Shown piece by piece: positions 5,135 through 50,586 of a stretch of 64,000 bases of DNA (the stretch's first letter is position 1; every line of letters begins with the position of its first letter). Made by a program: the position numbers and the translations under genes. Where the stretch lies: NCBI GenBank assembly GCA_937924445.1, contig CALDSX010000009.1:25141-89140 (forward strand), read 5' to 3'. Source of the stretch: an uncultured Chthoniobacterales bacterium (GTDB lineage Bacteria; Verrucomicrobiota; Verrucomicrobiia; Chthoniobacterales; CALDSX01). The notes beneath the pieces are model-generated. The model was not told the origin of the DNA. It saw nothing but the letters and a program-made list of their open reading frames with translations, and did not search any database.

Positions 5135-5722
5135 TTAACCTTCCTTTTGTGCGTAACCCTCCGGCCGAGCCCCGCTGACAAGCAGTTTGCGGCCCATGAA
5201 CTCTCTGTCGTGTAATTCAGCCACTGCTCGTTTTGCGTCGTCGATGCTTTGCATTTGCACAAATGCAAAACCTTTTGAGCGGTGGCTGTTCTTGTGGCTG
5301 ACCACTTCAGCGTTCTGCACTTTTCCGACGCAATTAAAGAGCGCAAACAAGTCGCTCTCTGTCGCATCGTACGAGAGGTTCCCGACGTAAAGCCGCGGGG
5401 ATGTAACTTCTAGGCAGACAGGTGGGCGTGGCGTTCGGACAGGTTGATACGCGGCTGCCTCGGCTATCGGTTTCCGGGTGGGTGATGTTTCATTGGGTTG
5501 AGACGCCTTGGCCGAGGATTTTTGGCCTGTCGTCGCGGAGGATTTGCTGCCGCTCAACAGGTTGGAGATGAAGGTCGTAATCCGTTGCAGAACACTCTGC
5601 TGAGCGACGGCCATCCGTCGCTGTTTGGAAAAAGCATAATGTCTTCGAGATTTCGACCCGGAGAAACCGCGTTTACGGCGTCGGGATTTGCCGCCGCTGC
5701 GGGCGGTCGTCGTGTCATTCAT
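5135..5722 (-). CDS. RRM-type RNA-binding protein with basic Ser/Arg/Lys-rich N-terminal extension
   Basis: C-terminal RRM with RNP2 LYVGNL and RNP1 KGFAFVQM. The track ORF extends to 6172, but its first 150 codons are Cys/Trp-rich and not protein-like. I place the start at the Met of MNDTTTARSGGKSRRRKRG (ATG at 5722-5720). Confidence 0.8.
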   Translation of the reverse strand: MNDTTTARSGGKSRRRKRGFSGSKSRRHYAFSKQRRMAVAQQSVLQRITTFISNLLSGSKSSATTGQKSSAKASQPNETSPTRKPIAEAAAYQPVRTPRPPVCLEVTSPRLYVGNLSYDATESDLFALFNCVGKVQNAEVVSHKNSHRSKGFAFVQMQSIDDAKRAVAELHDREFMGRKLLVSGARPEGYAQKEG

Positions 5723-6193
5723 GGATGTTGTATCAACGATTGTTGTATGCAACGGGCTCTCCTCAGTGCTTGCCTGTGCGAAAACAAACAATGGCAGGAG
5801 ACGGCTCTTTAGCCACCACGCAAAGCAGCGGAGGATGGCCCGCGATCTGTTATTTTTGATATTTTCGGGGCAGCCCACAAACGAGCACAAGCCCGCTCGT
5901 AGCACGCCACCGATGTCCTCTGTTTTTTGACTGTGCTCTTGCTGGTTTTGCGGGTGAATACTGCCGCCGCCTATTTGCCATGTCGCGCAGGGGGACCATG
6001 GAGAGAATTCAGCGAGAGAACACAAGCGCAGGAGGGGCTCTGCCCAAAAATTTGGGCGATCAAAGACATAGAGTTGATTTGAAAAAGCTCCTCTTAACAC
6101 ACATGTGAAGATACACTTGGCGCGCCTGATGGCAAGAGGCTGGAATTTTAATGTTGCGGAAGAACCGAACACGTCAATGTTAATTGATTAGAG

Positions 6194-26971: not shown

Positions 26972-29900
26972 TTAAGAGCAACCTTGGCTGGTGCCGCATT
27001 CGGTGCAAACGCCGCAAGCTCCGGCGCGGATGACCTTGTCACTGCCACAGTTTGAACAAGTGACGTGCATATACATGCTGCTCATGACGTTTTTCACACG
27101 GTCAGCATAGCTATGTCCGGAGGTGTCGGTGCCTTCAGAATTGCCTTCGTGGGTGAGAACTTCTATTACGCTCCGTTCGCCGGTGCGGGGCAATTCGGGC
27201 ACCGGTCGGTTGATAGCTTTTTTATCCATCTCAGCGATCTCCTTCATCGCCAGTTCTGGTTGGTGATGTTTTGGCGAGATAGATTCCTTATAGCCGGGGA
27301 TGAATTGGCAACCGAGCCAGCGGAAGACGTAATCAGTAATACTGAATGCGTTTCGGATGTCAGGATTCTTGGTATAGCCGCTGGGTTCGAAGCGTTGATA
27401 GGCGAATTTCTTCACGAGACTTTCCAAAGGCACCCCGTATTGGAGGGCAAGAGAAGTGAGTGTTGCGACGGTGTCCATGAGGCCGCCGATGGTGCTTCCT
27501 TCTTTGGCCATTTGAATAAAGAGCTCTCCTGGTGTGCTGTCTTCGTAGAGGCCAACAGTGATGTACCCTTCGTGTCCTGCAATCTCAAATTTATGCGTTA
27601 GGGAGAGTCGGGTTTCAGGCATCCGACGGCGCACAGGACGTTCGGCAGCCTGTTTGAGGAGCGCAATTTGGCTCTCGAGTTCCGCGATGCGAGCGACCAG
27701 AGATTCCTCTTGCTGCCCGGAGCCCATGTCTTTGGTCTTGCGATTTTGCACTGGCTGCGACCGTTTTGATCCGTCACGATAGATCGCAACACACTTTAAA
27801 CCCAATTGCCATGCCTCGATGTAGGTGTTTTTAATCTCCTCCACCGTGGCTGACTCCGGCATGTTGACAGTTTTTGAAATTGCACCACTGAGAAAAGGTT
27901 GTGCTGCAGCCATCATTTTCAAATGTCCGCGGTAGTGGAGGCTGCGTGAGCCGCGGGCTGGTTTGAAGGCACAATCAAAGACATGCAGATGCTCGGGCTT
28001 GAGCCCGCTTTTGATGATGTGTGTGGTGCCATCGTCGGATTTTTCGACCGCATCTTCGATGGTATCGAATTTGTCAATGTGCGCGATGATGGCCTGAATT
28101 TTCTCTTCGGAATACCCCAGGGCCTGCAATCCCGGGCGGACAGTTTGGTTTACGATTTTGAGCATGCCGCCACCGGCGAGCAGTTTATATTTCACCAAGG
28201 CGATTTCTGGCTCGATGCCTGTCGTGTCGCAATCCATGAGAAAACCGATCGTGCCTGTGGGAGCCAAAACGGTCACCTGGGCATTTCGGTAGCCGTAGTG
28301 GTCGCCGAGTCGAATCGCCTGATCCCACACTTTGCGGCCGGCGTTTTTGATGAAACCAAACCGCGACGAGGTGTTGATGTTTTCGACTGCTTCACGGTGC
28401 AGGTGCATGACTTCCCGCATCGATTCCACATTGCTGGGGGCAGATGGGTTGGGCGTTCCGTAGCAGCGTGCGTCATGATAGCCGGGAAAGGCCCCCATCG
28501 CTGCGGCAATTCTTGCGCTTTGAGTGTAGGCTTCTCCTGTCATGACGGCAGTGATCGCGCCCGCCAAAGCTCGGGCTTCGTCGCTGTCGTAACCCAGGCC
28601 GTAGCTCATGATGAGTGAGCCGAGATTGGCGTAACCAAGACCGAGCGTGCGGAAAATGTGGCTGTTTTCAGCAATCTCCCTTGTCGGGTAAGAGGCGTTG
28701 TCCACAATGATTTCCTGGGCGGTGATCAGAATGCGGACGGCTCTCTTGAAGCGTTCTACGTCGAATGTCCCGTCGTCCTTCTTGAACTTAAGGAGATTTA
28801 TCGAGGCGAGATTGCAGGCGGTGTTGTCAAGGAAGAGATACTCCGAGCATGGATTTGTGCTGTTTTGACGTCCGGTGCCTTTGCAGGTATGCCACTTGTG
28901 AATCGTCGAATCGAACTGCATTCCTGGGTCGCCACAAATCCATGTACCTTCGGCGATCTTGCTGAGCAGTGCGCTGGCGTTTTTCCTTTCGCACGGCTGA
29001 CGATCTGTGACCCGACGAGTCCAGTAATCTTCGCCTTTGATGGCCGCTTCCATGAACTCATCACTGGCACGGACAGAGAGATTTTCATTCTGATACATGA
29101 TCGAACCATAGGCTTCCCCGTTAAAACTACCGTCATAACCCTGCTCGATCAGCGCCCAAGCTTTTCGTTCTTCTTTTGCTTTGGCTTCGATAAATTCCTC
29201 GATATCGGGATGCCAGTCTTTGAGGGTATTCATCTTGGCCGCGCGACGAGTTTTGCCACCACTTTTGACGACGTTAGCAACCTGGTCATAGACTTTCAGG
29301 AATGAAAGCGGGCCGCTGGGTCGCCCGCCGCCGCTGAGCTTTTCCCGCGTCGAACGAAGGGTAGAAAGGTCTGTGCCAGTGCCACTCCCAAACTTAAAAA
29401 GCATCGCTTCACTTGTGGCCAGTCGCATGATGTCTTCCATAGAATCCTCGACTGATTGAATGAAGCAGGCGCTGGCCTGAGGGTATTCATACTGCGTCGG
29501 GGCGCGTTCGGCCTGTTTGCTTGCGCGGTTGTAAAACCAATTTCCGCGTCCGGCGTCTTTGCCCACGCTGTACTGTTGCCACAAACCGACGTTGAACCAA
29601 ACAGGACTATTGAACGCCGCATGCTGGTGAAGGCAGAGCCAGGTCAGATCTTTGTAAAAAGCTTCGCTGTCAGCGATCCCGGCAAAATAACCATCCTCAA
29701 GGCCCCAATCGGCAATCGTTCGTGTCACACGGTGAATGAGCTGACGGACCGAGGATTCGCGCCCGCCCTTGTAGGGGTCAGTGCCATTGGCGATGTCCCC
29801 GTAAAAGTACTTGGACACCGCAATCTTAGTGGCCAACTCACTCCAAGTGGTCGGCACCTCGACATTTTCCTGTTTGAAGATTACTTTGCCCGAGTCGTCA

Positions 29901-30115
29901 GAGATCTGTGCCGTCCGCTTCTCCCAAGTTACCGTCGCAAAGGGCTCGGCATCCTCAGGGCAGAACGTTTGTTGAAATTGGAGCTTTTGCCCGGCCAGGG
30001 GAGCTTCGGTTTCTTCTATGATCTCATCGAGGCTCTTTGTTGCCCTCGACTGGTTTGCGGTCGAGAGTCCAGAATAGGCCTTTTGCGGGGGCACGGTTGC
30101 AGTAGTTGTTGTCAT
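26972..30115 (-). CDS. nrdJ: Class II (adenosylcobalamin-dependent) ribonucleotide reductase
   Basis: 1047 aa. Typical long-form NrdJ blocks ([63 protein letters not shown]). C-terminal Cys-rich tail [28 protein letters not shown]. Confidence 0.95.
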   Translation of the reverse strand: [1047 protein letters not shown]

Positions 30116-37372: not shown

Positions 37373-39514
37373 ATGCCCAAACTCCTGGATTTTCCTCCCT
37401 CAACGTATGACGACTGGCGAAAAGAAGCTGAGGACTCGCTGAAGGGAGCACCTTTTGACAAAAAGCTCGTTTCAACGACGGCCGAAGGTATTTTAACTCA
37501 ACCTATCTATAATAAGACCGACATTGTTGGCCTGCCTCATCTGGGAGGGGTTCCGGGCGTGCCGCCATTTCTGCGTGGTTGCACAGCCGCTGGGGCACTC
37601 ACCCGGCCTCCTTTGATCGCTCAAGAGATACCGGCGTTTCTCGCCAAAGACTTTAACTCTTCTCTGCGTTCCGACATCGAACGTGGGCAGACGGCGGTGC
37701 GTCTTGTGCCCGACAAAGCTACTCGTGAAGGGCTCGACCCTGATTTGGCGCTCGAGTCTGAAGTCGCCTCCGGCGGGGTCTCCCTCTCGTGCATTGAAGA
37801 CATCGCCCGGGCGCTGGAGGGTATTGATACTGAAAAAACCCCGGTTTTTTTCTCCGCTGGCTCGGCTGCACTGCCGCTTTTCGCTTTACTCATTGGTGCG
37901 CTCCAAAGGGTGGGTCGGGATCCTCGAACTCTGCGTGGCGGTATTGAGTTTGATCCCTCTGCAACGCTTGCCAGGCGTGGGGCTCTTCCCTTTGAGCTTG
38001 AGCGCGTCTACAGAGAGCTTGCTGCATTGAACCGATGGGCTGCCTCTGGAGCACCCGGTTTTCGCACGCTTGTTGCCGACTCAACACCGTGGCATGACGC
38101 CGGAGCTGATGCGGTTCAGGAGCTTGCCTTTGCTCTAGCATCCGGCGCCGATACCCTCCGACGTCTTGGCAAGTTTGGGTTTGAAACAGACCAGCTCGCT
38201 TCCAGAGTCTATTTTGTGATGGGCGTTGGGTCGGATTTTTTCATGGAAATCGCGAAGTTCCGAGCTGCGCGTCTTTTGTGGCATCGTATTCTTGTGGCTT
38301 TTGGTGGTTCGGGAGAGCCTGGATTGCCTCTGCACGCCAGGACGTCGCGCTGGAATAAAACATTCCTTGATTCCCACACCAATATGCTGCGTTCGACCAC
38401 AGAGGCATTCTCTGCTTATGTTGCCGGCGTAGAGGCGGTCACGGTCGGAGGGTTTGATGAGATCTTCCGAATGCCAGACGAGTTTTCGCGTCGCATCGCG
38501 CGAAACACGCAAATCATTCTGGGCGAGGAATGTTCCTTAAACCGTATCATTGATCCGGTAGGTGGCGCTTATTATCCCGAGTGGCTCACAGATCAGGTGG
38601 CGCGAAAAGCCTGGGCGTTGTTTCAGGAGATCGAGGCTCAGGGTGGCATGATGCAGGCTGTTCTTGCAGGCTACCCCCAAAGTCTTACCGCAAAATCTGC
38701 CGATGCCCGCCAGGCCGCACTTGCCCAGCGTCGGCGCAATATGGTTGGCGTGAACATTTACGCCAACGCGGCAGAAGGGTTTCTTCCTGATGATACCTCT
38801 CCCGAACGCGCAGCTCACATTTCCGAAATCCGCCGTAAAATTCGGCAAAAAAGCTCCGAACGCCGCATTTCCGCAGAGCATGGCGAGGCCATCGAAACGC
38901 TGGAGAAACTCTCCGGGCTTCTCGGCTCAATGGATGAGGATTTGATTGAAACGGCAGTTGATGCCGCTCTGCATGGGGCGACACTCGGTGAAATAACGAA
39001 AACCTTGCGTGCCTCCTCCTCTAGCAGCATATCGGCCATACAGATCAAGCCCCGCCGGGCGGCAGATCAATTCGAGCGGATTCGCCTTGCGACCGAGGCT
39101 CGCAGGGTGCGTACGGGTGTTCGGCCTAAAATTTTTCTTGCCTGCTTTGGCCCGTTGAGACAACACAAAGCTCGAGCCGATTTCTCTCGTTCATTTCTCG
39201 AAACCGGAGGGTTCGAAGTGGTGGCGGGTAAAGGTGTCCCTGCCCCCGAAGATGCCGTTCGGCTTGCGATTGAGGTCAATCCGGAGGCAGTCGTGATTTG
39301 TTCAACGGACGAAACCTACCCGGAAATCGTCCCGACGTTTGCTCGTGAAGTCAAACGCCGTAAACCCTCCATTGTCGTTCTGCTCGCCGGTGCACCCGGC
39401 GAAAATGAAACCGCATTTCGGGAGGCGGGAGTGGACGATTTTATCCACCTGCGCGCCAACTGCCGCGATGCTTTGGTTGCTCTTCAGGAACGCATTACTG
39501 GGAGCCAATTTTGA
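37373..39514 (+). CDS. mutA: Methylmalonyl-CoA mutase small (beta) subunit
   Basis: 713 aa. Mutase-fold N-terminus (YDDWRKEAEDSLKGAPFDKKL...TQPIY). Homologous blocks to the downstream alpha subunit (RIARNTQIILGEE, DPVGGAYY). The C-terminal Rossmann-like domain lacks the DxHxxG cobalamin motif, as expected for a beta subunit. Confidence 0.85.
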   Translation: MPKLLDFPPSTYDDWRKEAEDSLKGAPFDKKLVSTTAEGILTQPIYNKTDIVGLPHLGGVPGVPPFLRGCTAAGALTRPPLIAQEIPAFLAKDFNSSLRSDIERGQTAVRLVPDKATREGLDPDLALESEVASGGVSLSCIEDIARALEGIDTEKTPVFFSAGSAALPLFALLIGALQRVGRDPRTLRGGIEFDPSATLARRGALPFELERVYRELAALNRWAASGAPGFRTLVADSTPWHDAGADAVQELAFALASGADTLRRLGKFGFETDQLASRVYFVMGVGSDFFMEIAKFRAARLLWHRILVAFGGSGEPGLPLHARTSRWNKTFLDSHTNMLRSTTEAFSAYVAGVEAVTVGGFDEIFRMPDEFSRRIARNTQIILGEECSLNRIIDPVGGAYYPEWLTDQVARKAWALFQEIEAQGGMMQAVLAGYPQSLTAKSADARQAALAQRRRNMVGVNIYANAAEGFLPDDTSPERAAHISEIRRKIRQKSSERRISAEHGEAIETLEKLSGLLGSMDEDLIETAVDAALHGATLGEITKTLRASSSSSISAIQIKPRRAADQFERIRLATEARRVRTGVRPKIFLACFGPLRQHKARADFSRSFLETGGFEVVAGKGVPAPEDAVRLAIEVNPEAVVICSTDETYPEIVPTFAREVKRRKPSIVVLLAGAPGENETAFREAGVDDFIHLRANCRDALVALQERITGSQF

Positions 39515-39565
39515 TCCGCGACTCGAACTCACACATTCCAAGTCTCAATCTCCCACTTTTTTGAC

Positions 39566-41752
39566 ATGAAATTTCCTGATTTTACTACGATCCCATTCGA
39601 AGCCGCTCCTGCGACACTCAAACCGAGCTTTGAGGAATGGAGAGCCGCTCTTGAAAGGGAGACAGGCAAAACCCTCGAGGAATTGGCCTGGAAAACAATG
39701 GAACAAATTGAACTCGGGGCCCTCTTCACAGAACAGGATCTTGAGGGGCTCGAGCATCTCGACTACACCGCTGGTGTACCGCCTTATCTCCGTGGCCCCT
39801 ATGCCACGATGTATGTGACCCGACCCTGGACGGTTCGTCAATACGCGGGATTTTCTACAGCCACCGAATCAAACGCCTTTTATCGCCGTAATCTTGCTGC
39901 CGGCCAGATGGGGCTCTCTGTTGCGTTCGATCTTGCAACACACCGTGGCTATGACTCCGACCATCCGCGAGTGATGGGTGACGTGGGAAAGGCCGGTGTG
40001 GCTGTGGATTCTGTTGAGGACATGAAAATTCTTTTCGACGGCATTCCGCTCGACAAAATGTCGGTCTCGATGACGATGAACGGCGCTGTCATCCCCGTTC
40101 TGGCATTTTACATTGTGGCTGCCGAGGAACAGGGTGTTAGGCACGAGCAACTGACAGGCACCATCCAGAACGATATCCTCAAGGAATACATGGTGCGGAA
40201 TACCTATATCTATCCGCCTGAGCCTTCGATGCGGATCATCGCCGATATTTTCCGCTTCACATCCAAGAATATGCCGAAGTTTAATAGCATCTCGATTTCC
40301 GGCTACCACATGCAGGAAGCGGGAGCCACTGCGGATCTTGAAATGGCTTACACACTTGCCGACGGGCTGGAATATGTGCGCACCGGCATTCAAGCCGGTA
40401 TTGATATTGACGCATTCGCTCCTCGGCTTTCGTTTTTTTGGGCGCAAGGCAAGAATTTCTTCATGGAAGTGGCCAAGATGCGCGCCGCCCGCGTGCTCTG
40501 GGCCAAGATCATCAAAGGGTTTAATCCTCAGAACCCAAAGAGCATGGCTTTGCGCACCCATTCGCAAACCAGCGGATGGTCACTCACTGAACAGGATCCG
40601 TTTAACAACGTCGTTCGCACTGCCGTCGAGGCAATGGCCGCAGCTCTCGGCCACACCCAATCGCTGCACACGAATTCCCTCGATGAAGCAATAGCGTTGC
40701 CAACAGATTTCTCGGCCCGGATTGCCCGCAACACTCAGCTATATCTTCAAGACGAAACCGGCATCTGTCGGGTGGTCGATCCGTGGGGCGGCTCTTACTA
40801 TGTTGAAGCCCTTACCGGCGCTCTTATCCAGCGGGCCTGGTCGCATATTGAAGAGGTTGAAAAACTTGGTGGCATGGCCAAAGCAATTGATTCCGGCCTT
40901 CCGAAGCTTCGGATCGAGGAGGCTGCTGCCCGGCGCCAGGCTCTCATTGATTCCGGCCGAGAGGTTATTGTAGGGGTCAACAAATACCGACTCTCCAAAG
41001 AGGAGCCCCTTGAAATCCTCGACGTGGACAACACGGCTGTCCGTAATGCGCAGATTGCCGCGATTAAAAAAATTAAAGCCACCCGCGACAACGCCCGAGT
41101 CACCTCGGCCCTCGCCGCGCTTCAAAATGCTGCCGCAACCAAGACCGGAAATTTGTTGGAACTCGCTCTTGAATGCGCCCGTGCTCGCGCGACATTGGGC
41201 GAGATTTCCGACGCAATGGAATCAGTGTTCGGACGTCACAAAGCGGTTATCCGCTCTGTTTCGGGGGTCTATGGCAAGGAGTTTGGTGACTCCGCACAGA
41301 TAGCCGAGGCCCGGCGGCTGACGGATGATTTCGCTCTGCGCGAAGGTCGTCGACCTCGCATCCTTATCGCCAAGATTGGCCAGGATGGGCATGACCGCGG
41401 CGCAAAAGTCGTTGCCACAGCCTATGCCGATCTCGGTTTCGATGTGGATATCGGGCCCCTCTTTCAAACACCAGCAGAGACCGCCCGCATGGCGGCTGAG
41501 AATGACGTGCATGTCGTCGGCATGTCAAGCCTTGCTGCCGGCCATAAAACCCTTCTCCCGCAACTTGTCGCGGAGCTTAAAAAACTCGGGCGCGAGGACA
41601 TCATTGTCATCGTCGGCGGTGTGATCCCCGCGCAAGACTACGATTTTCTGCTTGCCCATGGCGCAGCCGCCATTTTCGGGCCAGGCACGGTTATCCCCGA
41701 GGCGGCCATCAAAATAGTTAACGAACTGAACAAAAGGCTTGCCTCAGCCTGA
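39566..41752 (+). CDS. mutB: Methylmalonyl-CoA mutase large (alpha) subunit, adenosylcobalamin-binding
   Basis: 728 aa. [43 protein letters not shown], and the B12-binding [13 protein letters not shown] (DxHxxG) with GMSSLAAGH. Confidence 0.97.
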
Positions 41753-41837: not shown

Positions 41838-42716
41838 CTACCTTGCTTTACGCGGGCCAATAAGGGCGTCTACCGCCGTGCGGGCATGGGCATTGATGTT
41901 CACCACATCCTCCCGCGTCAACAAATCACCAGGGGGCTTGTCTATGATAGCACGAATGCGCTGTGATTCGGCAATGAGAGTTTGTATCACCTTACGTTGG
42001 GAGATCTCCGGGTGGAGGGTGGAGAGCCTATCCAGAAAGTAATCGAGCAATTCGATCTTGCGCAATAACTCCGCCCGTTCAGGCGAGTAATTCTCCATGA
42101 TCGTGTGGCTGGTGATTTCGAGGCCACGAATCCACCCTCCGACGCTGACAAGATGGGCGATTTCCTCGTCACGCAGTTCGATCATCGCCTGCTCTGCGTC
42201 CGTTTGTGCGGCTGAGAGTTCTGATTTGAGATCAGCCCAGTTCCCTGAGGAGCCGAGTTCAATCAGACTGCTTGCTCTAGGAAGAACTGCTTCGAGCACC
42301 GAGAGTCCACGAGCATGGCGCAACAATCCGCGGGCAAGATCTTCAAGATCGGAGATTTTTTCCGCATCAACCAACGCAAAACCTTGAGCGATCAACACAC
42401 CCATTGTGAGGGCGATCGTAGGCCGGTCCGTAGAGATTTTTCCTGGAACAGGCCGGCGGATTTTGGTGTAGGGAATCGGGCGAAGATTTTCGAGATCTTT
42501 AAGCAGCCGGGCAATCGAAGGCGCTGTGAAAACGTTAACGCCCAATTCTTCCCTTGCGTGTTCATCGGAAAGTATGTCCAGAAAATCATCTCCTTGAGCT
42601 TCACCCGTTACGTCTGAAGTTTTTTTTGAAACAGGCGTATCCCCGGCACCAAGGCAAATATCTAGCAAAGGGACCAGCCACGCGCTGCAGATAATGATCA
42701 GGGTCCGGGGTGTCAT
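41838..42716 (-). CDS. Hypothetical secreted, mainly alpha-helical protein
   Basis: 292-aa ORF with an N-terminal hydrophobic segment (LIIICSAWLVPLLDICLGAG). The sequence is acidic with helical heptad-like character. I recognised no family motif. Confidence 0.5.
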   Translation of the reverse strand: MTPRTLIIICSAWLVPLLDICLGAGDTPVSKKTSDVTGEAQGDDFLDILSDEHAREELGVNVFTAPSIARLLKDLENLRPIPYTKIRRPVPGKISTDRPTIALTMGVLIAQGFALVDAEKISDLEDLARGLLRHARGLSVLEAVLPRASSLIELGSSGNWADLKSELSAAQTDAEQAMIELRDEEIAHLVSVGGWIRGLEITSHTIMENYSPERAELLRKIELLDYFLDRLSTLHPEISQRKVIQTLIAESQRIRAIIDKPPGDLLTREDVVNINAHARTAVDALIGPRKAR

Positions 42717-43658: not shown

Positions 43659-43684
43659 CTTCGAGTGGCAAAGCCTTCTCGAAG
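43659..43684 (+). terminator. Strong stem-loop immediately after the TIM-barrel gene (possible terminator lacking a U-run)
   Basis: CTTCGAG-t-GGC-aaa-GCC-tt-CTCGAAG (10 bp paired) starts 4 nt after the stop codon. No T-tract follows. Confidence 0.35.
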
Positions 43685-43870: not shown

Positions 43871-46702
43871 GTGCACGGTAATGTAACGAAGATGTTACAA
43901 AAAATTGCTGGCAACGATGATCAATCGGACCTTGTTCTTAATATGCTTAGACCCGTTCGGAGATTAGCGGCCTCCGCCGTGGCAATAATCTTTTTGTGTG
44001 GGCTTGTCCGCTTGCAGGGGAGAGGAGAGACGGCAGAAGAATTGCTCAACCGCGGTTCAACAGCATACTCTGCGGGTAGCTTTAAAGAGGCTGAAGTCGC
44101 CCTGGCGAAGTTTCTCACGGATTATGGGCAGAGCGGACAGGTTGCTCAGCTTTTACCGCGGGTTTTGCCGATGTTGGCGATTTGTCAAATTCGTAACAGC
44201 AATTTTGAAGATGCAGGGGCTACAATAGATCAAGTGTTAGCTCTGAGGGAATCCCTTCCCTCCGCAGCCATCCTCGAAGAGTTAAGGTTTTGGCGTGGGA
44301 TTTGCCACCTTAAGAAGGAGGAGTTCGAGCTGGCTCGTGAGACATTTCAAAAATTCGCGACCTCCCATCCGCGTTCGGATAAGCGTGTGGAAGCGTTGCT
44401 CCTCTCAGCCACAAGTTATTCTTTGGAGAAAAATTGGAAAGAATCAGCGGATAACCTTGCCCAATTAATTCAAACACTCTCACAACCTGAAAAAGGCCGG
44501 GCCGTTGTCCTGCGGTTCCATTGTCTTTTGCAACTCGGTGCACTTGACGAGGCACTTCGGCTTCTTATCGAATTTTTTCCCCAACTCGACCAGATGATTC
44601 AGATCTCCGCAATGCAAGTCTTTGCCTTGGAACTCGGCACCGCTTTCCTCGCTGAGCAACGCCATCTTGACGCCATCGCCTGTTTCCAGAGAATTTGGAG
44701 TCGCGCACGCGTGTTGGCGCTACAACAGGAACGGCTCAACGTCCTTACCGCCCGCAAAACAGCCGCAGAACAACGCAAGGACACTTTTACCATTTTCCAA
44801 ACATCCCAGCTCCTTGCCAAGGTGGAGCGGGAATTGAAGATTTTCCGTGAATTTCCATCATTCGACGCCGCTTTGCGGCTCCGACTGGCGTCGGCTTACC
44901 TTGCAATGGAACGTTTCCGAGAGGCAGCGCTTGTGCTCGATGCGATGCTTCATGAAATGCCTGCGGATGAAATTGTGGAAGGAGCATCGGCTACTTTGCT
45001 AAAGTGCTGGGGTGAAATAGAACGATGGCCAAAAGTCATCGAGGCTGCAGATCTTTTTATCGCCAAATTCCCTCAATCAAAAAATGTGCCCGAGGCACTT
45101 TTCCTGAAAGCTCGCGCACAGCAGGAGCTTGCGGCCTACCCCGACGCAGTGGCCACCTATGATCAACTCGCAAAAACCTTTCCGGATTCTTCTCTCGCAC
45201 CACGTGCGAAATTTATGGCGGGCTACACACAGCTAATGGCCGAAGAATATCACGATGCTTCTGAACGAATGGAGGCGGTCTACGACAAACATCAGAAGCA
45301 TGAAATTGCCGAGGCGGCAGTCTTCTGGAAAGGGATGGGTCTTTCTATGGCCAAAGCACATCAAGAGTCCCGCGCCCAAATGGAGCGTTACCTCAATCTT
45401 TACAAGAACGGAGCCTACCGGACCCAGGCGCAGTTTCGTAAGGCCTACTCCGCACATTCAATGAAGGATTACCAAACAAGTATTTGTGAATTGCGCTTGT
45501 TTCTCAGGGATAACCCCGATTCTGCGGAAGCAGATGAAGCACTTATCCTTCTGGGTGACGCATTGATGGCGACCGGCGAGATGCAACAGGGTATTGCGGC
45601 CTACAAACGCATTTCACAAACAAACCCGCGTTTTTTCGAAGAGGGTTGGTTTAAAGTGGGCAGAGCTCTCAAACAACTGGAAGATCTCGAAGGCATGAAA
45701 AAACACTTTGAGGAGTTCATCCAGTTGCGGCCGAAGAGCACCAGGCTTCCTGAGGCGTTTTACCAGATTGGTTGGGTGCTAAGACAACAACAACGTGAGG
45801 ATGAGGCGAAGAAACTCTACTGGTCAGCGGTCAAAGAAATGGGTGACGATGCCGGACGCCACGCCGTGGAGGATTTGTTGCTAGGCCTTTTGCGCCTCCA
45901 CAGGGGCGAAAAAGAAAAACATTCTTTACGTGAAGGACTACGCGCACTACGGGACAAGGCCGAGGCAGAGGGCAAAAAGGTCTTTCAAAGTCGTTTGGCA
46001 TGGGCCCTTTCCAAGACCTACAGCAAAGACGATGAGATCATGGCCCAGACATTGCTCGATGAAGCAGGCCGACTGGCCGATCCTGCCACTGCAAGCCCCC
46101 AACTCCTCGCCGATGTTGCGGAAGCCTCTTACAAAGCAGATCTCAAAGAACGGGCAGCCCTCCTCTATCGCAACTTGATTAAATGGAACCCCCGCGCTCC
46201 ACAAAAAGACCGCGCTTTGTTTTGTCTGGGTTTCATAGCCAAAGAGCAGGGACGCTCCGAAGAGGCACTCAAACTCTTCGCAAGATTCCAGAGGGAAGTC
46301 CCCGACTCCCTGCTCGCCTCCCGGGTTCTCTTGGCAAAATCAGCCATCGAGCTTGACTTAGGCCAAGCCGATGAAGCCTTAAAAACCCTCGAGACCCTTC
46401 TGGCTACCCAGGGGGCAGCAGGTCGAGACAAGGCAGCCGCCCTTTTTGCGATAGGCGAAATTTTTCAATCGAAAGGCGATCTCAAAAAAGCCTATGCCTA
46501 CTACCAGCGCATCTATGTTTTATATTCAAAATTCGGCGATCTTGTCGCCAAGGCCTATCTTCGCTGCGGCACTCTGCTTGAGACCCTCAAAGATCTCGAG
46601 GGCGCTCGCAAAACTTACGAGGAAATGTTGGGGCGGGAAGATCTACCAGATGGAGAAGAACTTCGAACGGCCCGGGAACGGCTTGCGCAGCTCGCCTCAT
46701 GA
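43871..46702 (+). CDS. Large TPR-repeat protein (first gene of the ExbB/ExbD/VWA operon)
   Basis: 943 aa. Many TPR-like A..Y..A..(F/Y).....P units (for example FPQSKNVPEALFLKARAQQELAAYPDAVATYDQLAKTFPDSSLAPRAKF). An N-terminal hydrophobic segment follows the Met at 43943, which may be the true start. Confidence 0.8.
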   Translation: MHGNVTKMLQKIAGNDDQSDLVLNMLRPVRRLAASAVAIIFLCGLVRLQGRGETAEELLNRGSTAYSAGSFKEAEVALAKFLTDYGQSGQVAQLLPRVLPMLAICQIRNSNFEDAGATIDQVLALRESLPSAAILEELRFWRGICHLKKEEFELARETFQKFATSHPRSDKRVEALLLSATSYSLEKNWKESADNLAQLIQTLSQPEKGRAVVLRFHCLLQLGALDEALRLLIEFFPQLDQMIQISAMQVFALELGTAFLAEQRHLDAIACFQRIWSRARVLALQQERLNVLTARKTAAEQRKDTFTIFQTSQLLAKVERELKIFREFPSFDAALRLRLASAYLAMERFREAALVLDAMLHEMPADEIVEGASATLLKCWGEIERWPKVIEAADLFIAKFPQSKNVPEALFLKARAQQELAAYPDAVATYDQLAKTFPDSSLAPRAKFMAGYTQLMAEEYHDASERMEAVYDKHQKHEIAEAAVFWKGMGLSMAKAHQESRAQMERYLNLYKNGAYRTQAQFRKAYSAHSMKDYQTSICELRLFLRDNPDSAEADEALILLGDALMATGEMQQGIAAYKRISQTNPRFFEEGWFKVGRALKQLEDLEGMKKHFEEFIQLRPKSTRLPEAFYQIGWVLRQQQREDEAKKLYWSAVKEMGDDAGRHAVEDLLLGLLRLHRGEKEKHSLREGLRALRDKAEAEGKKVFQSRLAWALSKTYSKDDEIMAQTLLDEAGRLADPATASPQLLADVAEASYKADLKERAALLYRNLIKWNPRAPQKDRALFCLGFIAKEQGRSEEALKLFARFQREVPDSLLASRVLLAKSAIELDLGQADEALKTLETLLATQGAAGRDKAAALFAIGEIFQSKGDLKKAYAYYQRIYVLYSKFGDLVAKAYLRCGTLLETLKDLEGARKTYEEMLGREDLPDGEELRTARERLAQLAS

Positions 46703-47646
46703 AGATGTCATTCGCTGCCTTTGGGATTACTCTCGCTCTTGCCGTAGCGCATGGGACAGAGTCTGGCACCCCCACTCCAGGTCCCGCCGCCTCTAAAGAC
46801 GTGATCTTTAGGCTCTCAGGCGGAGTGCTTGCCGGAAGGATTTTTGCTTTTGACCACGACGCAATCCGCATGGAAGTCGATGTCATTCCCGGTCAACCAC
46901 CCGGCCGGATTGCCGTTCCAAGAGCGAACATCCTGCGTATTGAATTCGCGGAGGATCCCGAAGCGGAGGCACTTTTGGCAGCGCGGAATCTTTCACAGTT
47001 TGATGCGATCGAAGCGCATTGGCTCAAACGGCGTCCCACCCTCTCAATCGAAGGTTCCAACGCTGGCGAGTTTGGGCTTGCTACCGCCGAACTTCTTCTC
47101 GACCGCGCTCGCTCCGGAGATCGCGAGCGGGCACTGCAACTTTTTGAATTGATCGAGCGAGAAGATTGGTTCGAACTTCGAAAATCTTCCGCCCGCGGGG
47201 GCAGACTTAAGGCAATGGTACTCTTAGGCCGTGCCAACGAAGCGATTGAGGAAGCCCGCCAGGTGCTTTCCCAAACGGAAGATCCCGGTGTTCTTATTGA
47301 ATCTCATCATGTTCTCGGCGAAGCTTCCTTCGCGGCTTTAAAAAAACTTGTCGAAGAGAACCCGCGTTGGAGAGAAGATCTGTTCGTGCGCCCCGACTAT
47401 GACCGCTTGCTCAATGAAGCGCTCGACCACTATCTTTTCGCACCTCTTTTTCACGGTTCCGTGGAGGAAGCCGCGGCTCGCGGCTTGTGGGCGGCCGGCC
47501 AAGTATTGGCATTTCACGGTGCATTCTCCGAACAAAAAAAACTTGCGAACGATATCACCGCCCTTTACCCCCGCAGCTCTTTTGTAAATCAGGCATTGTC
47601 TGTTCTTTCAGATGCCCCTAAACCTCCCTCACGCCCTGCCGAATAA
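46699..47646 (+). CDS. Hypothetical secreted helical-repeat protein
   Basis: 315 aa. Signal peptide MKMSFAAFGITLALAVAHG. The start overlaps the TPR gene stop (ATGA). No recognisable family motif. Confidence 0.55.
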   Translation: MKMSFAAFGITLALAVAHGTESGTPTPGPAASKDVIFRLSGGVLAGRIFAFDHDAIRMEVDVIPGQPPGRIAVPRANILRIEFAEDPEAEALLAARNLSQFDAIEAHWLKRRPTLSIEGSNAGEFGLATAELLLDRARSGDRERALQLFELIEREDWFELRKSSARGGRLKAMVLLGRANEAIEEARQVLSQTEDPGVLIESHHVLGEASFAALKKLVEENPRWREDLFVRPDYDRLLNEALDHYLFAPLFHGSVEEAAARGLWAAGQVLAFHGAFSEQKKLANDITALYPRSSFVNQALSVLSDAPKPPSRPAE

Positions 47647-47696
47647 AATCCCTTATATTTCGCATTATATTTAACCACACTGAAAACCAATCCAAC

Positions 47697-48512
47697 ATGA
47701 AAACATCGTACCATTATAGCCACCCACGCCTTGCCACCCTTCTGCTTCTGTTTTGTCTTTTTACCGCACCGACTGCTGTGTCTGCTCAGAATGATGCCGC
47801 GCCGACTGTGAAGACCAAGACGCTGCTCGATCTTTACAATCAAGGCGGGTTTCTCATGCACCCGATCTTGCTCTGTTCCATCGGCACTATCGCGGTCTGT
47901 GCCTACTGCCTGCTTCAGATCAACCCAAAGAAGATGGCACCAAAAAGCCAGTTTGACGCGCTGAGCCACTTCATGCGCGTGCGCGACCCGAACAGCGCCT
48001 ACGAGCTTTGCCAAAACAACCCCAACGCGTTGGCAAACACCACTGCCGCAGCTTTGTTGAAAGTAAACTTCGAAAGGGAATTGGCCAATAAGGTATCAAT
48101 GGAACAGGCAGCCGCAGAAACACTCAACACAGAGGAAACCCGCCTTATGATCTGGGTGAATTACCTCAACGTGTTTGCCACCATCGCCCCGATGCTCGGT
48201 CTCCTCGGCACCGTTACCGGCATGATCTCTAGCTTTGACCAACTTGCCGCAGGTAAAAGCGAACCGCAGGATCTCGCAGGTGGTATCGGCCAGGCTATGA
48301 TCACCACAGCAGGCGGACTCATCACAGGCATCCCTGCAATGTTCTTTTATTTTTATTTCCGCAACAAACTCATGGTCGCCATCAATGACATCCAGCGCAA
48401 CGTGACCTTCCTCATTGACGTTCTATCGGGGGAACTCAAACTCGAGGGGGCCGTCGAGGAAGCCATCCCAACTGCAGAGACCTCAGGGAGCACAGCAAAC
48501 GCTCAGGCTTGA
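47697..48512 (+). CDS. exbB: MotA/TolQ/ExbB-family proton channel
   Basis: 271 aa. Conserved C-terminal core IAPMLGLLGTVTGMISSF...GGIGQAMITTAGGLITGIPAMFFY. It also has its own N-terminal signal peptide (LATLLLLFCLFTAPTAVSA). Confidence 0.9.
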   Translation: MKTSYHYSHPRLATLLLLFCLFTAPTAVSAQNDAAPTVKTKTLLDLYNQGGFLMHPILLCSIGTIAVCAYCLLQINPKKMAPKSQFDALSHFMRVRDPNSAYELCQNNPNALANTTAAALLKVNFERELANKVSMEQAAAETLNTEETRLMIWVNYLNVFATIAPMLGLLGTVTGMISSFDQLAAGKSEPQDLAGGIGQAMITTAGGLITGIPAMFFYFYFRNKLMVAINDIQRNVTFLIDVLSGELKLEGAVEEAIPTAETSGSTANAQA

Positions 48513-48545
48513 TCCACTCAGTCGGCTTTTACAAACAAAACCGCC

Positions 48546-48953
48546 ATGATCGTCCGCCGCCGATCCCACGAGGAAGTCAGCTTTCAACTGGCTCCTATGA
48601 TTGACATGACTTTCCTCCTGCTGGTCTTCTTCATGGTCACGACCAAAATCAGCAAGGAACAGCTCAAAATGGATATCAAACTCCCGAAGGCCTCTCATGC
48701 CGAGATCCCCAAAGACCTCTCCAACCGCGACATCATTAACATTAGCGCCAACGGGGATTACTATCTTGGTGACCGTCTGCACTCGACCAAAGAGATGGCT
48801 GAATATTTGAAAAACCGGTTTATCAATTTTCCACCGCTGCGGATTTATGTTCGTGCGGATCACAACACGCCGGCAAAGAAAATAAAAGAACTCATGCGGC
48901 TGGCCACCGAGGCCGGAGCCATTGATGTGATTTTCGGTTCTTACCAGGATTAA
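48546..48953 (+). CDS. exbD: ExbD/TolR-family biopolymer transport protein
   Basis: 135 aa. N-terminal FQLAPMIDMTFLLLVFFMVT with the conserved Asp in the TM. Confidence 0.9.
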   Translation: MIVRRRSHEEVSFQLAPMIDMTFLLLVFFMVTTKISKEQLKMDIKLPKASHAEIPKDLSNRDIINISANGDYYLGDRLHSTKEMAEYLKNRFINFPPLRIYVRADHNTPAKKIKELMRLATEAGAIDVIFGSYQD

Positions 48954-48998
48954 CGTTATGGTCTGCTTCTGCCCACGTCAGCAAACCAACCCTGCCCG

Positions 48999-49448
48999 AT
49001 GAGACTCAACCGACGAGATCTCGGCACGGTCGAGATTCAGATGGGGCCCATGATTGACATGGTCTTCCTGCTCCTTGTTTTCTTCATGGTGACAGCCAAA
49101 CCCACTAAGCAGGAGGCCGACATAGGTCTCAAGCTTCCGGGCACTGTTACCCAGGAAGAGGCTTTGGAAATGCCTGACGAGCAAAGAATCGTAATACAAG
49201 CCAATGGTCAGGTAGTTCTTAACGATGCTCCCATCGATAGCCACAACAGCAGTGACCTGCCGCGCCTTCTGGCCACCCTCGCACGCTTCAAAAAAACGGC
49301 CGACGCCAACCGATCCGAAGCGCTCGTAACAATCGACCCTCACGACAGCGTCCCACATCAGCGGATTGTGGATGTGCTCAACACCTGCGCGAAGGCGGAG
49401 ATCACCGGGGTGACTTTTGCCGACAGCCCACCTGGGGAGGAGGAATAA
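48999..49448 (+). CDS. exbD: ExbD/TolR-family biopolymer transport protein (second paralogue)
   Basis: 149 aa. IQMGPMIDMVFLLLVFFMVT, and HQRIVDVLNTCAKAEI in the periplasmic domain. Confidence 0.9.
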   Translation: MRLNRRDLGTVEIQMGPMIDMVFLLLVFFMVTAKPTKQEADIGLKLPGTVTQEEALEMPDEQRIVIQANGQVVLNDAPIDSHNSSDLPRLLATLARFKKTADANRSEALVTIDPHDSVPHQRIVDVLNTCAKAEITGVTFADSPPGEEE

Positions 49449-49452
49449 TCCA

Positions 49453-50586
49453 ATGCCTATCGCTGCCACACCTCTCTTATCAACCAGACCTAAAAAACCG
49501 CACACACCGCCTGACGTCGCACGCCGACGCAAAGTCATCACATCCGTCATTACATTATCTCTCCTGATCCATTTAGTCGCCGGGCTCGGGGCCGGGCTTT
49601 TCATTGTGGCCAAATATGTGTTCCAACAGCCGGCCAAATTCGAGGTGAAAAAAGACATCCGCCTCCCGGCAAAAGAGCGAGAGCATCGGATGAACATGGC
49701 TGAATTTGACGCCATGACACCCAAACCGGTTTTCAACGAAAAGCTCGCTAGTCTGCGCCCAACAAATTTTGCATTGCCTGATCTTCCGAAAGTCCCGCTG
49801 GACCAAATGCTCCCGCTCGATCCTGCCTCAATTATTTCGGATCAAGTCAGCAGTCTGGTCGGCGCGGCGGGAAGTGGCTCCGGCGGTGCGGGCTCCGATG
49901 GTCTGGGTGGATTCGGATCTGGCATGAGCTTTTTCGGCATTAAAGACACGGGCCGTTCCGTCTTGATTATGATTGATGTGTCCGATTCGATGTTCGGACG
50001 AACCGGAGATTATGATTATCACACAAGAAGTAAACTTCGCGAAGGAAAAGAGCAGAGCTTTCAGGCCGTTCGCAACGAGGCCATCAAGTTAATCGATGGG
50101 CTTGGGATTAATACTCGCTTTGGGATTGTCCGCTGGTCTGGCGGGGCCTACAGTTGGCGTCAGGAACTGGTGCCCGCCACAGATCAGAACAAAGAGGCCG
50201 CCCGGAAGCACATCCAGGAGCAGGTGGATGTCAAAACTGCCGCACCTAGGGATGGCCGTCCAGGGGGCACACGCCATGATTACGCGTTGGAGGAAGCCTT
50301 CCGGCTTAAGCCGGAAATCATTTTTATGCTCACTGATGGGAACGCTACTGAACCAAAAGGCGGGCGTGGAGAAATCTCCCCTATCCCGGCCCGGCGCATT
50401 TATGAAGTCGCCGAATCAGGTCAGCGCGGACTCGAAAAACCCGCGCGGCTCCATGTGATTTACTACTTAACTGGCGAAGCCAAAAACGAGGAGGAACGGA
50501 TGCTTCGCGGTCTCGCATCTCGTAACGGCGGCAAATTTTCTAAAATCAAAGCACCTCGCCTGCCCTCTCCAACGGAGCGGAGGTAA
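49453..50586 (+). CDS. Membrane-anchored VWA (MIDAS) domain protein occupying the TonB position
   Basis: 377 aa from the ATG at 49453, 4 nt after the exbD stop. Basic N-terminus. One TM (VITLSLLIHLVAGLGAGLFIVA). A Pro/Lys-rich then Gly/Ser-rich linker. VLIMIDVSDSMFG (DxSxS) and FMLTDGNAT are typical of VWA domains. No TonB C-terminal motif recognised. Confidence 0.75.
   Translation: MPIAATPLLSTRPKKPHTPPDVARRRKVITSVITLSLLIHLVAGLGAGLFIVAKYVFQQPAKFEVKKDIRLPAKEREHRMNMAEFDAMTPKPVFNEKLASLRPTNFALPDLPKVPLDQMLPLDPASIISDQVSSLVGAAGSGSGGAGSDGLGGFGSGMSFFGIKDTGRSVLIMIDVSDSMFGRTGDYDYHTRSKLREGKEQSFQAVRNEAIKLIDGLGINTRFGIVRWSGGAYSWRQELVPATDQNKEAARKHIQEQVDVKTAAPRDGRPGGTRHDYALEEAFRLKPEIIFMLTDGNATEPKGGRGEISPIPARRIYEVAESGQRGLEKPARLHVIYYLTGEAKNEEERMLRGLASRNGGKFSKIKAPRLPSPTERR

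Follow-up and report, generated by a model that had tools for sequence, protein, structure and literature searches.

The six co-directional genes at positions 43,871 to 50,586 of the window (the whole 64,000-nucleotide stretch of DNA analysed here, from an uncultured Chthoniobacterales bacterium) probably encode a Ton/Tol-like, PMF-driven force-transduction machine in which a VWA domain replaces the C-terminal domain of TonB/TolA, a reading that we hold with moderate confidence. All six genes lie on the plus strand and encode a giant TPR protein (43871..46702), a secreted 315-aa protein, P315 (46699..47646), an ExbB/TolQ-type proton-channel subunit of the pentameric type (47697..48512), two ExbD/TolR paralogues, ExbD1 of 135 aa (48546..48953) and ExbD2 of 149 aa (48999..49448), and a 377-aa candidate VWA force transducer (49453..50586). 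ORF coordinates and junction sequences bore out the gaps given in the initial annotation (-4, 50, 33, 45 and 4 nt) as well as the ATGA junction, a 4-nt overlap, between the gene for the signal-peptide-bearing P315 and the TPR gene, and these two genes are predicted to be translationally coupled. Overlaps of 4 nt are conserved at the TPR/P315, ExbD2/VWA and P315/VWA junctions; in the window the ExbD2-VWA gap is 4 nt, and a Shine-Dalgarno-like run, GGAGGAGGA, lies inside the last codons of ExbD2. From the spacing and the conserved synteny we infer that the six genes form one co-transcribed operon.

The product of the sixth gene, previously described as a VWA anchor, scores below cut-off in Pfam (VWA_2, 24.4 bits against 27) and receives no Bat assignment from NCBIfam. 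An AF2 model (pLDDT >90 for residues 157-370), whose top Foldseek matches include ITIH4 (2.3e-11), ITIH1 (6.2e-10), BatB (3ibs, 2.4e-08) and the Bacteroides fragilis aerotolerance-related membrane protein 4jdu, confirmed a VWA fold at the level of the predicted structure. A short cytoplasmic N-terminus precedes a transmembrane helix (residues 21-56, nt 49513-49620) that contains S36-x3-H40 (His codon 49570-49572), a conserved juxtamembrane segment with a Gly-rich linker (~100 residues, 57-156) and the VWA domain (residues 157-370, nt 49921-50562), whose MIDAS is intact (D175-x-S177-x-S179, nt 49975-49989, with T273 and D295). Across 80 orthologues, H40 is invariant whatever the genomic context (80/80), as are all five MIDAS residues (80/80), and S36 is kept in 59 of the 80. 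From the SHLS motif only S and H are retained, the positions of L and the second S being A47 and I/V51, and the 'motor box' beta strand (residues 61-70) is modelled with low confidence (pLDDT ~53). With its invariant transmembrane His and its TonB/TolA topology, the protein is predicted, by sequence and model alike, to be a TonB/TolA analogue and more than an anchor. It has 740 homologues, every named one of them Verrucomicrobial.

The motor genes were assigned from family models and residue-level alignment. ExbB belongs to the MotA_ExbB family (PF01618, 9.5e-26), with TolQ as its top NCBIfam match (65.6 bits, under the cut-off) and TolQ (2.9e-09) and ExbB (1.8e-07) as its top PDB matches, and ExbD1 and ExbD2 both match PF02472 (2.9e-21 and 1.6e-22), although at 31% identity they are divergent paralogues. 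TolQ and TolR are the best-scoring curated NCBIfam families for the motor subunits, all of which score under the equivalog cut-offs. In 27 orthologues the Thr ring of the channel (T172 and T204) and the transmembrane Asp20 of both ExbD1 and ExbD2 are invariant, whereas the position equivalent to E. coli ExbB E176 and TolQ E173 is variable and is occupied by Q199 in the window; since this Glu is unconserved, the motor may work differently. The cleavable-type signal peptide that the initial annotation had noticed in ExbB (residues 1-~30, nt 47697-47786) is present in all orthologues and hence conserved in the family, but it is not a novelty: 'long' ExbBs with a processed signal sequence and a periplasmic extension are documented in Serratia marcescens and many others (PMC9008036).

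The same six-gene order recurs at 21 other loci with different flanks, in 20 species-representative genomes and at a locus (L002) on a 6.4-Mb metagenome contig. Because of this recurrence, and because a published class corresponds to it, the description of the operon as a self-contained envelope machine distinct from standard TonB or Tol-Pal systems holds, and the earlier interpretation as a whole is supported in part. Among 80 Verrucomicrobial genomes, the VWA gene accompanies the motor and the TPR pair at ~20 loci, the TPR pair only at another ~20 and the motor only at 4-5 (L019 and L024 carry VWA and motor genes without the TPR pair), and stands alone in ~33; in L027 and L029, ExbD2 and VWA are adjacent with ExbB and ExbD1 absent. 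The linkage of the TPR and 315-aa genes to exbBD, on which the earlier reading had been staked, is broken in the ~20 motor-less genomes, where the TPR-P315 pair is coupled directly to the VWA gene and no ExbB or ExbD was found within 10 kb, even at relaxed thresholds. Because the pair stays coupled to VWA without a motor, the conserved core is TPR-P315-VWA, to which the motor is linked facultatively. By gene context the VWA gene is the hub among these 80 genomes, an observation that is new here, and because it stands alone in ~33 of them, the evidence that it is a physical partner of the motor and of the TPR pair comes from synteny in the other lineages.

The separability of the motor, as seen in the ~20 genomes with TPR-P315-VWA and no exbBD nearby, is also what would be expected of an ordinary Ton system, in which ExbB and ExbD1/2 energise TonB and receptors encoded elsewhere and the VWA, TPR and 315-aa genes are unrelated neighbours. 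The clear family assignments of ExbB and ExbD fit such a system, and one ExbBD complex can serve several TonB paralogues (PMC9008036). We nevertheless regard this explanation as highly improbable, given that the VWA protein has its transmembrane His in the S-x3-H arrangement of TonB in all 80 orthologues, that translational coupling joins ExbD2 to VWA, a pairing that persists even without ExbB and ExbD1, and that the six-gene order is kept amid unrelated flanks. Moreover, the claim that no Pal, TolB or TonB-dependent receptor gene is adjacent stands: no TonB, TonB-dependent receptor, TolB or Pal gene was found within ~10 kb or among 20 further window ORFs, mostly the largest, and the scanned genes of the 64-kb window include no TonB_C or TBDT match.

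The TPR protein reads as 943 aa from GTG 43871 or as 919 aa from ATG 43943. The ATG is probably the start and the GTG less likely, because the signal peptide is then N-terminal, as it is among the homologues; the length of 943 aa was probably overstated. The TPR identity proposed for the protein was upheld (TPR_6, 3.5e-28). Many TPR families match in Pfam (YfiO at 7.8e-24), and NCBIfam returned TIGR02795 ybgF (2.5e-49, over 8 stretches), BamD TIGR03302 (3.2e-30) and a weak BatC-type model (5.5e-05). The protein consists of BamD/CpoB-type TPR_6 modules, and its CpoB/BamD matches may be due only to TPR_6 being a generic repeat type of periplasmic proteins. Its signal peptide is of the Sec (SPI) type, and homologues occur at 37 related loci; more than 30 homologue N-termini are plain signal peptides, and their comparison revealed no conserved lipobox Cys. 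P315, which has no sequence match in Pfam, NCBIfam or the PDB, begins with a signal peptide (residues 1-~30), which is followed by a beta domain of five strands (residues 34-82, nt 46798-46944) and a TPR-like helical solenoid (residues 87-304, nt 46957-47610), with HPRW, LFHG and AARGLW as motifs in the alignment. A remote-homology search with its AF2 model (pLDDT 85.8, pTM 0.73), as had been proposed, returned generic TPR/BamD/LGN matches only (Foldseek, E ~4e-3). The family comprises 299 representative clusters, some members showing weak TPR_14/TPR_6 and DUF4429 matches, and a TPR::P315 fusion occurs once (P0265). P315 defines a conserved family without a Pfam model, which is new in the present analysis, and both it and the TPR protein look soluble and not lipidated.

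VWA and TPR proteins, together with a small beta domain, are the parts list of Bat systems, and the operon could accordingly be a static Bat-like scaffold, structural or stress-protective, with no force transduction and with a regulatory or incidental linkage to exbBD. The Foldseek matches to BatB and 4jdu, the weak BatC-type match of the TPR protein and the many genomes with the trio or a lone VWA gene and no adjacent motor all point in this direction. However, no MoxR ATPase or DUF58 gene occurs among the scanned neighbours, and a static scaffold explains neither why the transmembrane His is invariant nor why the coupling of ExbD2 to VWA is conserved; we know of no Bat VWA protein with the TonB S-x3-H motif, and consider this reading improbable. 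Even less credible, and in our view very improbable indeed, is a role in surface adhesion or gliding, with the motor driving an adhesin-like VWA module in the way that Agl-Glt uses the VWA adhesin CglB. VWA domains do mediate adhesion, a gliding-type role has been offered as a possibility (PMC12204202) and Myxococcus gliding is reported to be powered by TolQR-like motors (PMC11761067), but the ~100-residue linker ties the VWA domain to the inner membrane, the domain is predicted to be periplasmic, not surface-exposed, the six-gene operon encodes no outer-membrane component or secretion gene, and its housekeeping context and broad conservation would span lineages not known to glide.

Upstream of the operon, 3' of an AP-endonuclease-2-family gene, a hairpin on the plus strand (43659..43684) consists of a 7-bp perfect stem and 3 inner pairs (-13.5 kcal/mol). 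The stem-loop said to close the preceding gene is thus present, but it is a weak terminator candidate: 19 of 200 shuffles fold equally well (z = -1.48), it has no U-tract and a terminator scan made no call there. It is not demonstrably a member of the six-gene system. The 20 other window ORFs scanned are all housekeeping. Because of these flanks, the vertical conservation and a likeness to TolQ/TolR/CpoB/BamD above that to ExbB/ExbD, we favour a housekeeping envelope role, a Tol-like coordination of the outer membrane, peptidoglycan or periplasmic assemblies, with substrate-specific uptake as the main alternative.

That alternative could take the form of polymer uptake related to MUL1 of Akkermansia muciniphila, with a motor-VWA-TPR complex supplying the energy for capturing glycans or glycoproteins or for importing them through the outer membrane. 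According to papers citing Davey et al. 2023, MUL1, including the periplasmic Mul1A and Mul1B, is needed for mucin import into the cell and is the sole cluster of ExbBD plus unknowns that has been studied genetically in the phylum; these papers describe it as Sus-like and call mul1A a mucin transport gene needed for competitive gut colonisation. Its annotated parts, in the same phylum, are similar: Amuc_0543 (mul1B), Amuc_0544 (mul1A) and a further gene are hypothetical, Amuc_0546 is ExbD/TolR, Amuc_0547 hypothetical and Amuc_0548 MotA/TolQ/ExbB. We judge this explanation unlikely all the same. The gene order is unlike that of the six-gene operon, A. muciniphila is absent from the best 120 VWA homologues and from the 80 species loci, and loci labelled 'Akkermansia' are environmental, with 61-67% GC. 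MUL1 synteny is reported to be missing in aquatic Akkermansiaceae, whereas the six-gene cluster is broadly conserved, and the flanking genes scanned in the window are housekeeping, with no CAZyme or sulfatase genes among them.

For the favoured force-transduction machine, we propose that five ExbB subunits and an ExbD1/ExbD2 heterodimer would assemble a 5:2 rotary motor, that the VWA helix would dock outside the ExbB pentamer via its His in the manner of TonB and TolA, and that the conserved juxtamembrane segment would engage the ExbD periplasmic domains. Rotation could then pull on the linker, such that the VWA domain exerts force on a carboxylate ligand at the MIDAS, its most likely direct partners being the TPR and P315 periplasmic scaffolds.

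Comparison with known systems places the operon as follows. MUL1 (Amuc_0543-0548) is likewise a Verrucomicrobial six-gene cluster with ExbB, ExbD and 'hypothetical' periplasmic proteins, but its gene order differs in a comparison by annotation only, and close orthology is improbable. As in Bat (BatA-E), a membrane-anchored VWA protein, with BatB among its best structural matches, and a TPR protein are co-encoded, although the window operon lacks MoxR/DUF58 genes and adds a motor of the ExbB/ExbD type and a His in the transmembrane helix. Like the 'long' ExbB of Serratia, the window ExbB carries a signal peptide, but its mature extension before TM1 is ~15-20 residues as opposed to ~50, and its partner is a VWA protein and not a TonB paralogue such as HasB, which the Serratia extension contacts (PMC9008036). 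Tol-Pal shares the motor subunits scoring best against TolQ/TolR models and TolQ structures, the housekeeping context and a co-encoded periplasmic CpoB/YbgF-type TPR protein (TIGR02795, 2.5e-49); in contrast, TolA domain III, TolB and Pal are lacking from the window operon, the motor scores fall under the TolQ/TolR cut-offs and the TPR protein is ~3.5x the length of CpoB, with 8 repeat modules. The Ton system shares ExbB/ExbD homologues in which the Thr ring of the channel and the Asp of ExbD are kept, and an accessory protein with an N-terminal S-x3-H helix, a linker and a globular domain, but the window operon has a VWA/MIDAS domain where TonB has a beta-strand-augmentation C-terminal domain, two ExbD paralogues, an unconserved ExbB E176 equivalent and no nearby TonB-dependent receptor. 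Closest is the 'vWA force transducer' class proposed by computer analysis (Mol Biol Evol 2025, PMC12204202), defined by a conserved His within a transmembrane helix, a ~100-residue disordered linker and a C-terminal vWA fold, for which AF3 models position this His on the motor at the site used by TonB/TolA and no deletion phenotype is reported for any member. The text of that paper is silent on a 315-aa gene that separates TPR from tolQ-like genes, on motor-less TPR-P315-VWA arrangements and on an invariant MIDAS, and the window protein differs in retaining only S and H of SHLS. The window operon nonetheless has exactly the same architecture (helix with His, linker, vWA and motor), and we conclude that, matched by architecture, it is a member of this class.

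ORF calling on the window bore out the six co-directional genes described in the initial annotation, all on the + strand and encoding a TPR protein (43871-46702), P315 (46699-47646, a secreted protein of 315 aa), ExbB (47697-48512), ExbD1 (48546-48953), ExbD2 (48999-49448) and VWA (49453-50586, a von Willebrand A protein of 377 aa). The TPR and P315 genes share an ATGA overlap, the other gaps measure 50, 33, 45 and 4 nt, and a GGAGGAGGA run lies within the 3' end of exbD2, ahead of the 4-nt gap to VWA. Homologue comparison suggests that the TPR protein starts at the ATG at 43943, a start that leaves its signal peptide at the very N-terminus. A hairpin at 43659-43684, previously taken to close the preceding gene, does exist, but it is statistically unremarkable and lacks a U-tract, and makes a weak terminator candidate; promoter and terminator scans inside the operon returned nothing above chance. 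A 252-aa ORF on the opposite strand (48978-49736, -) overlaps exbD2 and the start of VWA, and antisense 'shadow' ORFs of this kind form clusters in 30 related loci and almost certainly do not encode proteins, being artefacts of sense-strand codon bias.

The VWA protein gave only sub-threshold VWA matches in Pfam (24.4 bits versus a cut-off of 27), and we analyzed it by first aligning 35 homologues and then widening the comparison to 80 orthologues drawn from species-representative genomes. The alignment revealed a short cytoplasmic N-terminus, a transmembrane helix, a conserved juxtamembrane segment (P-A-x-F-x-V...IPAQxREH, just past the helix), a Gly-rich linker and a C-terminal domain. The helix, predicted at residues 21-56, carries Ser36-x3-His40, of which His40 is present in 80/80 orthologues and Ser36 in 59/80. 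In the AF2 model, residues 57-156 connect the helix to the VWA domain, with pLDDT below 50 in the Gly-rich part (130-155), whereas residues 157-370 are modeled with pLDDT above 90. Foldseek aligned this model with the VWA domains of ITIH4, ITIH1, BatB, the calcium-channel alpha2delta subunit and vWF-A1 (E 2e-11 to 1e-6), and the residues of the metal-ion-dependent adhesion site (MIDAS), D175-x-S177-x-S179, T273 and D295, are each found in 80/80 orthologues. The VWA protein thus has the topology of TonB or TolA with a different head.

The motor is encoded by gene 3 (MotA_ExbB in Pfam, 9.5e-26) and genes 4 and 5 (ExbD, 2.9e-21 and 1.6e-22), and against NCBIfam its subunits score highest with TolQ and TolR, although well under cut-off (65.6 versus 221 for the TolQ equivalog, about 50 versus 127.3 for TolR). 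Alignment of ExbB to the E. coli ExbB and TolQ structures, together with column counts over 27 orthologues, identified T172 and T204 as the counterparts of E. coli ExbB T148 and T181, both channel Thr residues being invariant, whereas the position of the functionally important Glu of E. coli ExbB (E176) and TolQ (E173) is occupied by Q199 and varies between Q, A, K, E and V. Given this variability, the ExbB subfamily of the operon may handle protons differently. The transmembrane Asp is invariant in both ExbD paralogues, which share only 31% identity, and a heterodimeric ExbD1/ExbD2 plunger would fit this divergence and the retained Asp. All ExbB orthologues carry the signal peptide, a feature initially regarded as unusual; it has precedent in Serratia ExbB, whose precursor carries a signal sequence that is processed and whose periplasmic extension touches the TonB paralogue HasB, and in other 'long' ExbBs, which are common (PMC9008036).

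The product of the TPR gene matches many TPR families in Pfam and, in NCBIfam, the CpoB/YbgF TPR model (eight stretches) and BamD. Its TIGR02795 score of 166.8 bits (cut-off 90.1) is a sum of eight repeat stretches over 919 aa, and the protein reaches 60 bits versus 383 with the full-length CpoB model NF008068. A lipoprotein anchored in the outer membrane was ruled out by the absence of a conserved lipobox Cys from more than 30 N-termini; since, in addition, every homologue opens with an ordinary Sec signal peptide, the TPR protein is a secreted, probably soluble periplasmic solenoid. P315 has no match in Pfam or NCBIfam, nor in the PDB by sequence, and its AF2 model (pLDDT 85.8) places a TPR-like helical solenoid after a five-stranded beta domain (residues 34-82). 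The remote-homology search proposed for this protein, conducted with Foldseek, yielded generic TPR, BamD and LGN structural neighbours without a specific match, and some family members show weak matches to TPR_14, TPR_6 and DUF4429. Word-indexed searches, one with a 23-sequence profile included, retrieved just six to seven proteins, whereas an exhaustive representative search reached 299 clusters (263 at E <= 1e-10) that share the motifs HPRW, LFHG and AARGLW. P315 therefore represents a compact but real family, previously unremarked as a partner. One representative protein (P0265, 1383 aa) consists of a complete TPR protein and a complete P315 connected by a Pro/Ser-rich linker and therefore provides Rosetta-stone support for a physical partnership between the two. 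In another (P0147, 466 aa), located at a contig end, P315 runs directly into the signal peptide and first transmembrane segment of ExbB, which could mean that the genes are fused, that a stop codon was lost or that the assembly is wrong.

Next, we compared genomic arrangements by scanning species-representative genomes, which yielded 80 loci that were annotated by iterated HMM searches seeded with the window proteins. The full six-gene order recurs at 20 loci and at one further locus on a 6.4-Mb contig with unrelated flanks (L002); the 'six-gene operon' is one layout among several modular ones. ExbB-ExbD-ExbD-VWA without the TPR pair occurs at two loci (L019 and L024), with LysM, KpsF and CorA genes upstream, and two others (L027, 9228-11101; L029, 9543-11095) retain only ExbD2 and VWA, adjacent, co-directional and without ExbB or ExbD1 upstream, which suggests that, of the two paralogues, ExbD2 serves the VWA transducer specifically. 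A 994-aa and 303-aa pair at L029, considered as divergent TPR and P315, proved to be a sulfatase/YHYH protein and a BrkB-family protein. At about 20 loci the trio TPR-P315-VWA is found with no ExbB or ExbD inside 10 kb, even at E <= 10 after the filters were switched off. VWA occurs alone at approximately 33 loci (L051-L084), whose labels read Chthoniobacterales, Spartobacteria or uncultured Verrucomicrobiae, and in many cases these loci have the block OPT-VWA-cupin-DsbD in common; this block comprises an OPT oligopeptide transporter (sometimes duplicated), VWA, cupin, DsbD, AhpC/redoxin, an ABC ATPase and an FtsX/MacB-type permease, and is probably lineage synteny, though its redox and envelope theme is noticeable. 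Four-nucleotide overlaps recur between TPR and P315, between ExbD2 and VWA and, in the trio, between P315 and VWA. Because the arrangements vary around VWA while its transmembrane His is unchanged in every one of them (80 orthologues), we conclude that the VWA gene is the hub between the motor and TPR modules. All-against-all clustering of the flanking ORFs identified no further conserved partner genes, the clusters being either antisense shadow ORFs or genes that are syntenic within particular lineages (OPT transporter, cupin, DsbD, AhpC, ABC/FtsX). Verrucomicrobial or unspecific labels apply to 79/80 loci; the exception, a 3.6-kb contig binned as Xanthobacteraceae (L082), encodes a VWA with 62% identity to that of the window, followed by cupin and DsbD as at Chthoniobacterales-type VWA-alone loci, and most likely contaminates that bin and does not represent a proteobacterial member.

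We also surveyed approximately 10 kb around the operon and 20 other window ORFs, mostly the largest. All surveyed neighbours were housekeeping genes (for example, RpoD, DnaG, transketolase, class II RNR, methylmalonyl-CoA mutase, NrnA, TruB and RibF), and the reported absence of TonB, TonB-dependent receptor, TolB and Pal genes was borne out for this region and these ORFs. Upstream of the operon, a 292-aa ORF on the opposite strand (41838-42716, -) has a signal-peptide-like N-terminus and no Pfam match, and is separated from the operon by an AP-endonuclease-2-family gene. Elsewhere, a 345-aa protein (5135-6172, -) combines a C-terminal eukaryote-type RRM_1 RNA-recognition motif (1.9e-20) with an N-terminal region of about 260 residues lacking a family match, an architecture unusual among bacterial RRM proteins, and a 719-aa protein (24398-26557, +) whose gene adjoins that of the Der GTPase contains seven FG-GAP_2 repeats (4e-89), an integrin-alpha-like beta-propeller. 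Two neighbouring methylmalonyl-CoA mutase-family genes (37373-41752, +; 713 and 728 aa) and a class II ribonucleotide reductase with a TSCPD domain (B12-dependent; 26972-30115) point to B12-dependent metabolism.

Owing to the housekeeping context, the vertical conservation and the TolQ-, TolR-, CpoB- and BamD-like scores, we favour a Tol-like coordination of the envelope as the output, with a gliding or adhesion role being less likely. The main alternative is polymer uptake by a machine possibly related to MUL1, the A. muciniphila cluster Amuc_0543-0548, which according to its annotation table and citing papers encodes ExbB, ExbD and several hypothetical periplasmic proteins and, in those citing papers, is required for mucin import and competitive colonisation. 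Against this alternative, A. muciniphila is missing from the best 120 VWA homologues; the loci labeled 'Akkermansia' are high-GC environmental MAGs, and the abundant cluster P0104 is environmental as well. No solved structure of MUL1 was found in the PDB by sequence search.

As the mechanism, we envision that an ExbB5-ExbD1/ExbD2 motor would turn proton flow into rotation, that the VWA helix would ride the ExbB pentamer via His40 while its juxtamembrane segment engages ExbD, and that linker tension would reach a ligand carboxylate gripped at the MIDAS, the TPR/P315 complex being the best candidate for a VWA partner or adaptor. To our knowledge, TonB and TolA are the sole characterised proteins that transmit proton-motive energy from the inner membrane outward to the outer envelope, and all TonB and TolA proteins characterised so far grip their targets by beta-strand augmentation. 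A VWA/MIDAS head, if true, would constitute a third type of transducer, with 5:2 motors wired to another mechanical coupling, and could explain how the outer envelope is energised in PVC bacteria that lack a recognisable TolA or TonB. A bolder proposal, which we regard as improbable, is that the trio TPR-P315-VWA rather than the motor forms the conserved core, the MIDAS of the VWA domain tethered to the inner membrane making a force-bearing, integrin-like bond that pulls a periplasmic TPR/beta-domain scaffold; with metal-mediated gripping of a ligand in place of beta-strand augmentation, the trio would serve either as a Tol-Pal-replacing machine for envelope coordination in Verrucomicrobiae or as a polymer-capture machine ancestral to MUL1. 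The window offers a clean, compact example of a candidate VWA transducer operon, with testable handles in the invariant His, the invariant MIDAS, P315, the natural TPR::P315 fusion and the core formed by the trio and not the motor. The initial reading of a self-contained envelope machine is largely right, with corrections for the role of VWA, the novelty of the ExbB signal peptide, the linkage to the motor and the terminator.

Among named systems, the Ton motor shares with the window motor the channel Thr residues and the ExbD Asp (the ExbD Asp25 feature), but the window ExbB has no conserved equivalent of E176, and TonB_C and TBDT families are absent from the operon proteins and the scanned window ORFs; an ordinary Ton motor with bystander neighbours is a less likely explanation. 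Unlike Tol-Pal, the operon and scanned window ORFs lack tolB, pal and TolA domain III. A static Bat-like scaffold is likewise less likely, since the window VWA domain resembles BatB in structure only (Foldseek), and the MoxR-type ATPase and DUF58 protein, which in the Bat aerotolerance operon accompany BatA/BatB VWA and BatC/BatE TPR proteins, are absent within approximately 10 kb and among the scanned ORFs. An anti-phage defence function (MotAB-like, such as Zorya) was excluded, with 0/6 proteins matching PADLOC at E <= 0.01. [quoted passage not shown] A second family from this study, the vWA 'transpore-helix' proteins, has an ExbD-like helix with a proton-binding Asp, tolQ without tolR/exbD, and paired vWA genes (PMC12204202); the window VWA was ruled out as a member by its helix, which has a His and no Asp, and by the two exbD genes and single VWA gene of its operon. 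The text of PMC12204202 makes no mention of a P315 gene, the motor-less trio or MIDAS conservation. The window operon has the features of the force transducer class, qualified for two of them: VWA keeps just the S-H half of SHLS, with A47 and I/V51 at the positions of the L and second S, and AF2 shows no strand, at low confidence (pLDDT about 53-66), in the conserved segment past the helix where a motor box would lie. It shares the domain II of about 100 residues, the vWA-fold C-terminal domain and the two ExbDs, in the order TPR-P315-ExbB-ExbD1-ExbD2-VWA. We conclude that the window system joins a recently described, experimentally uncharacterised class that is itself already in the literature.
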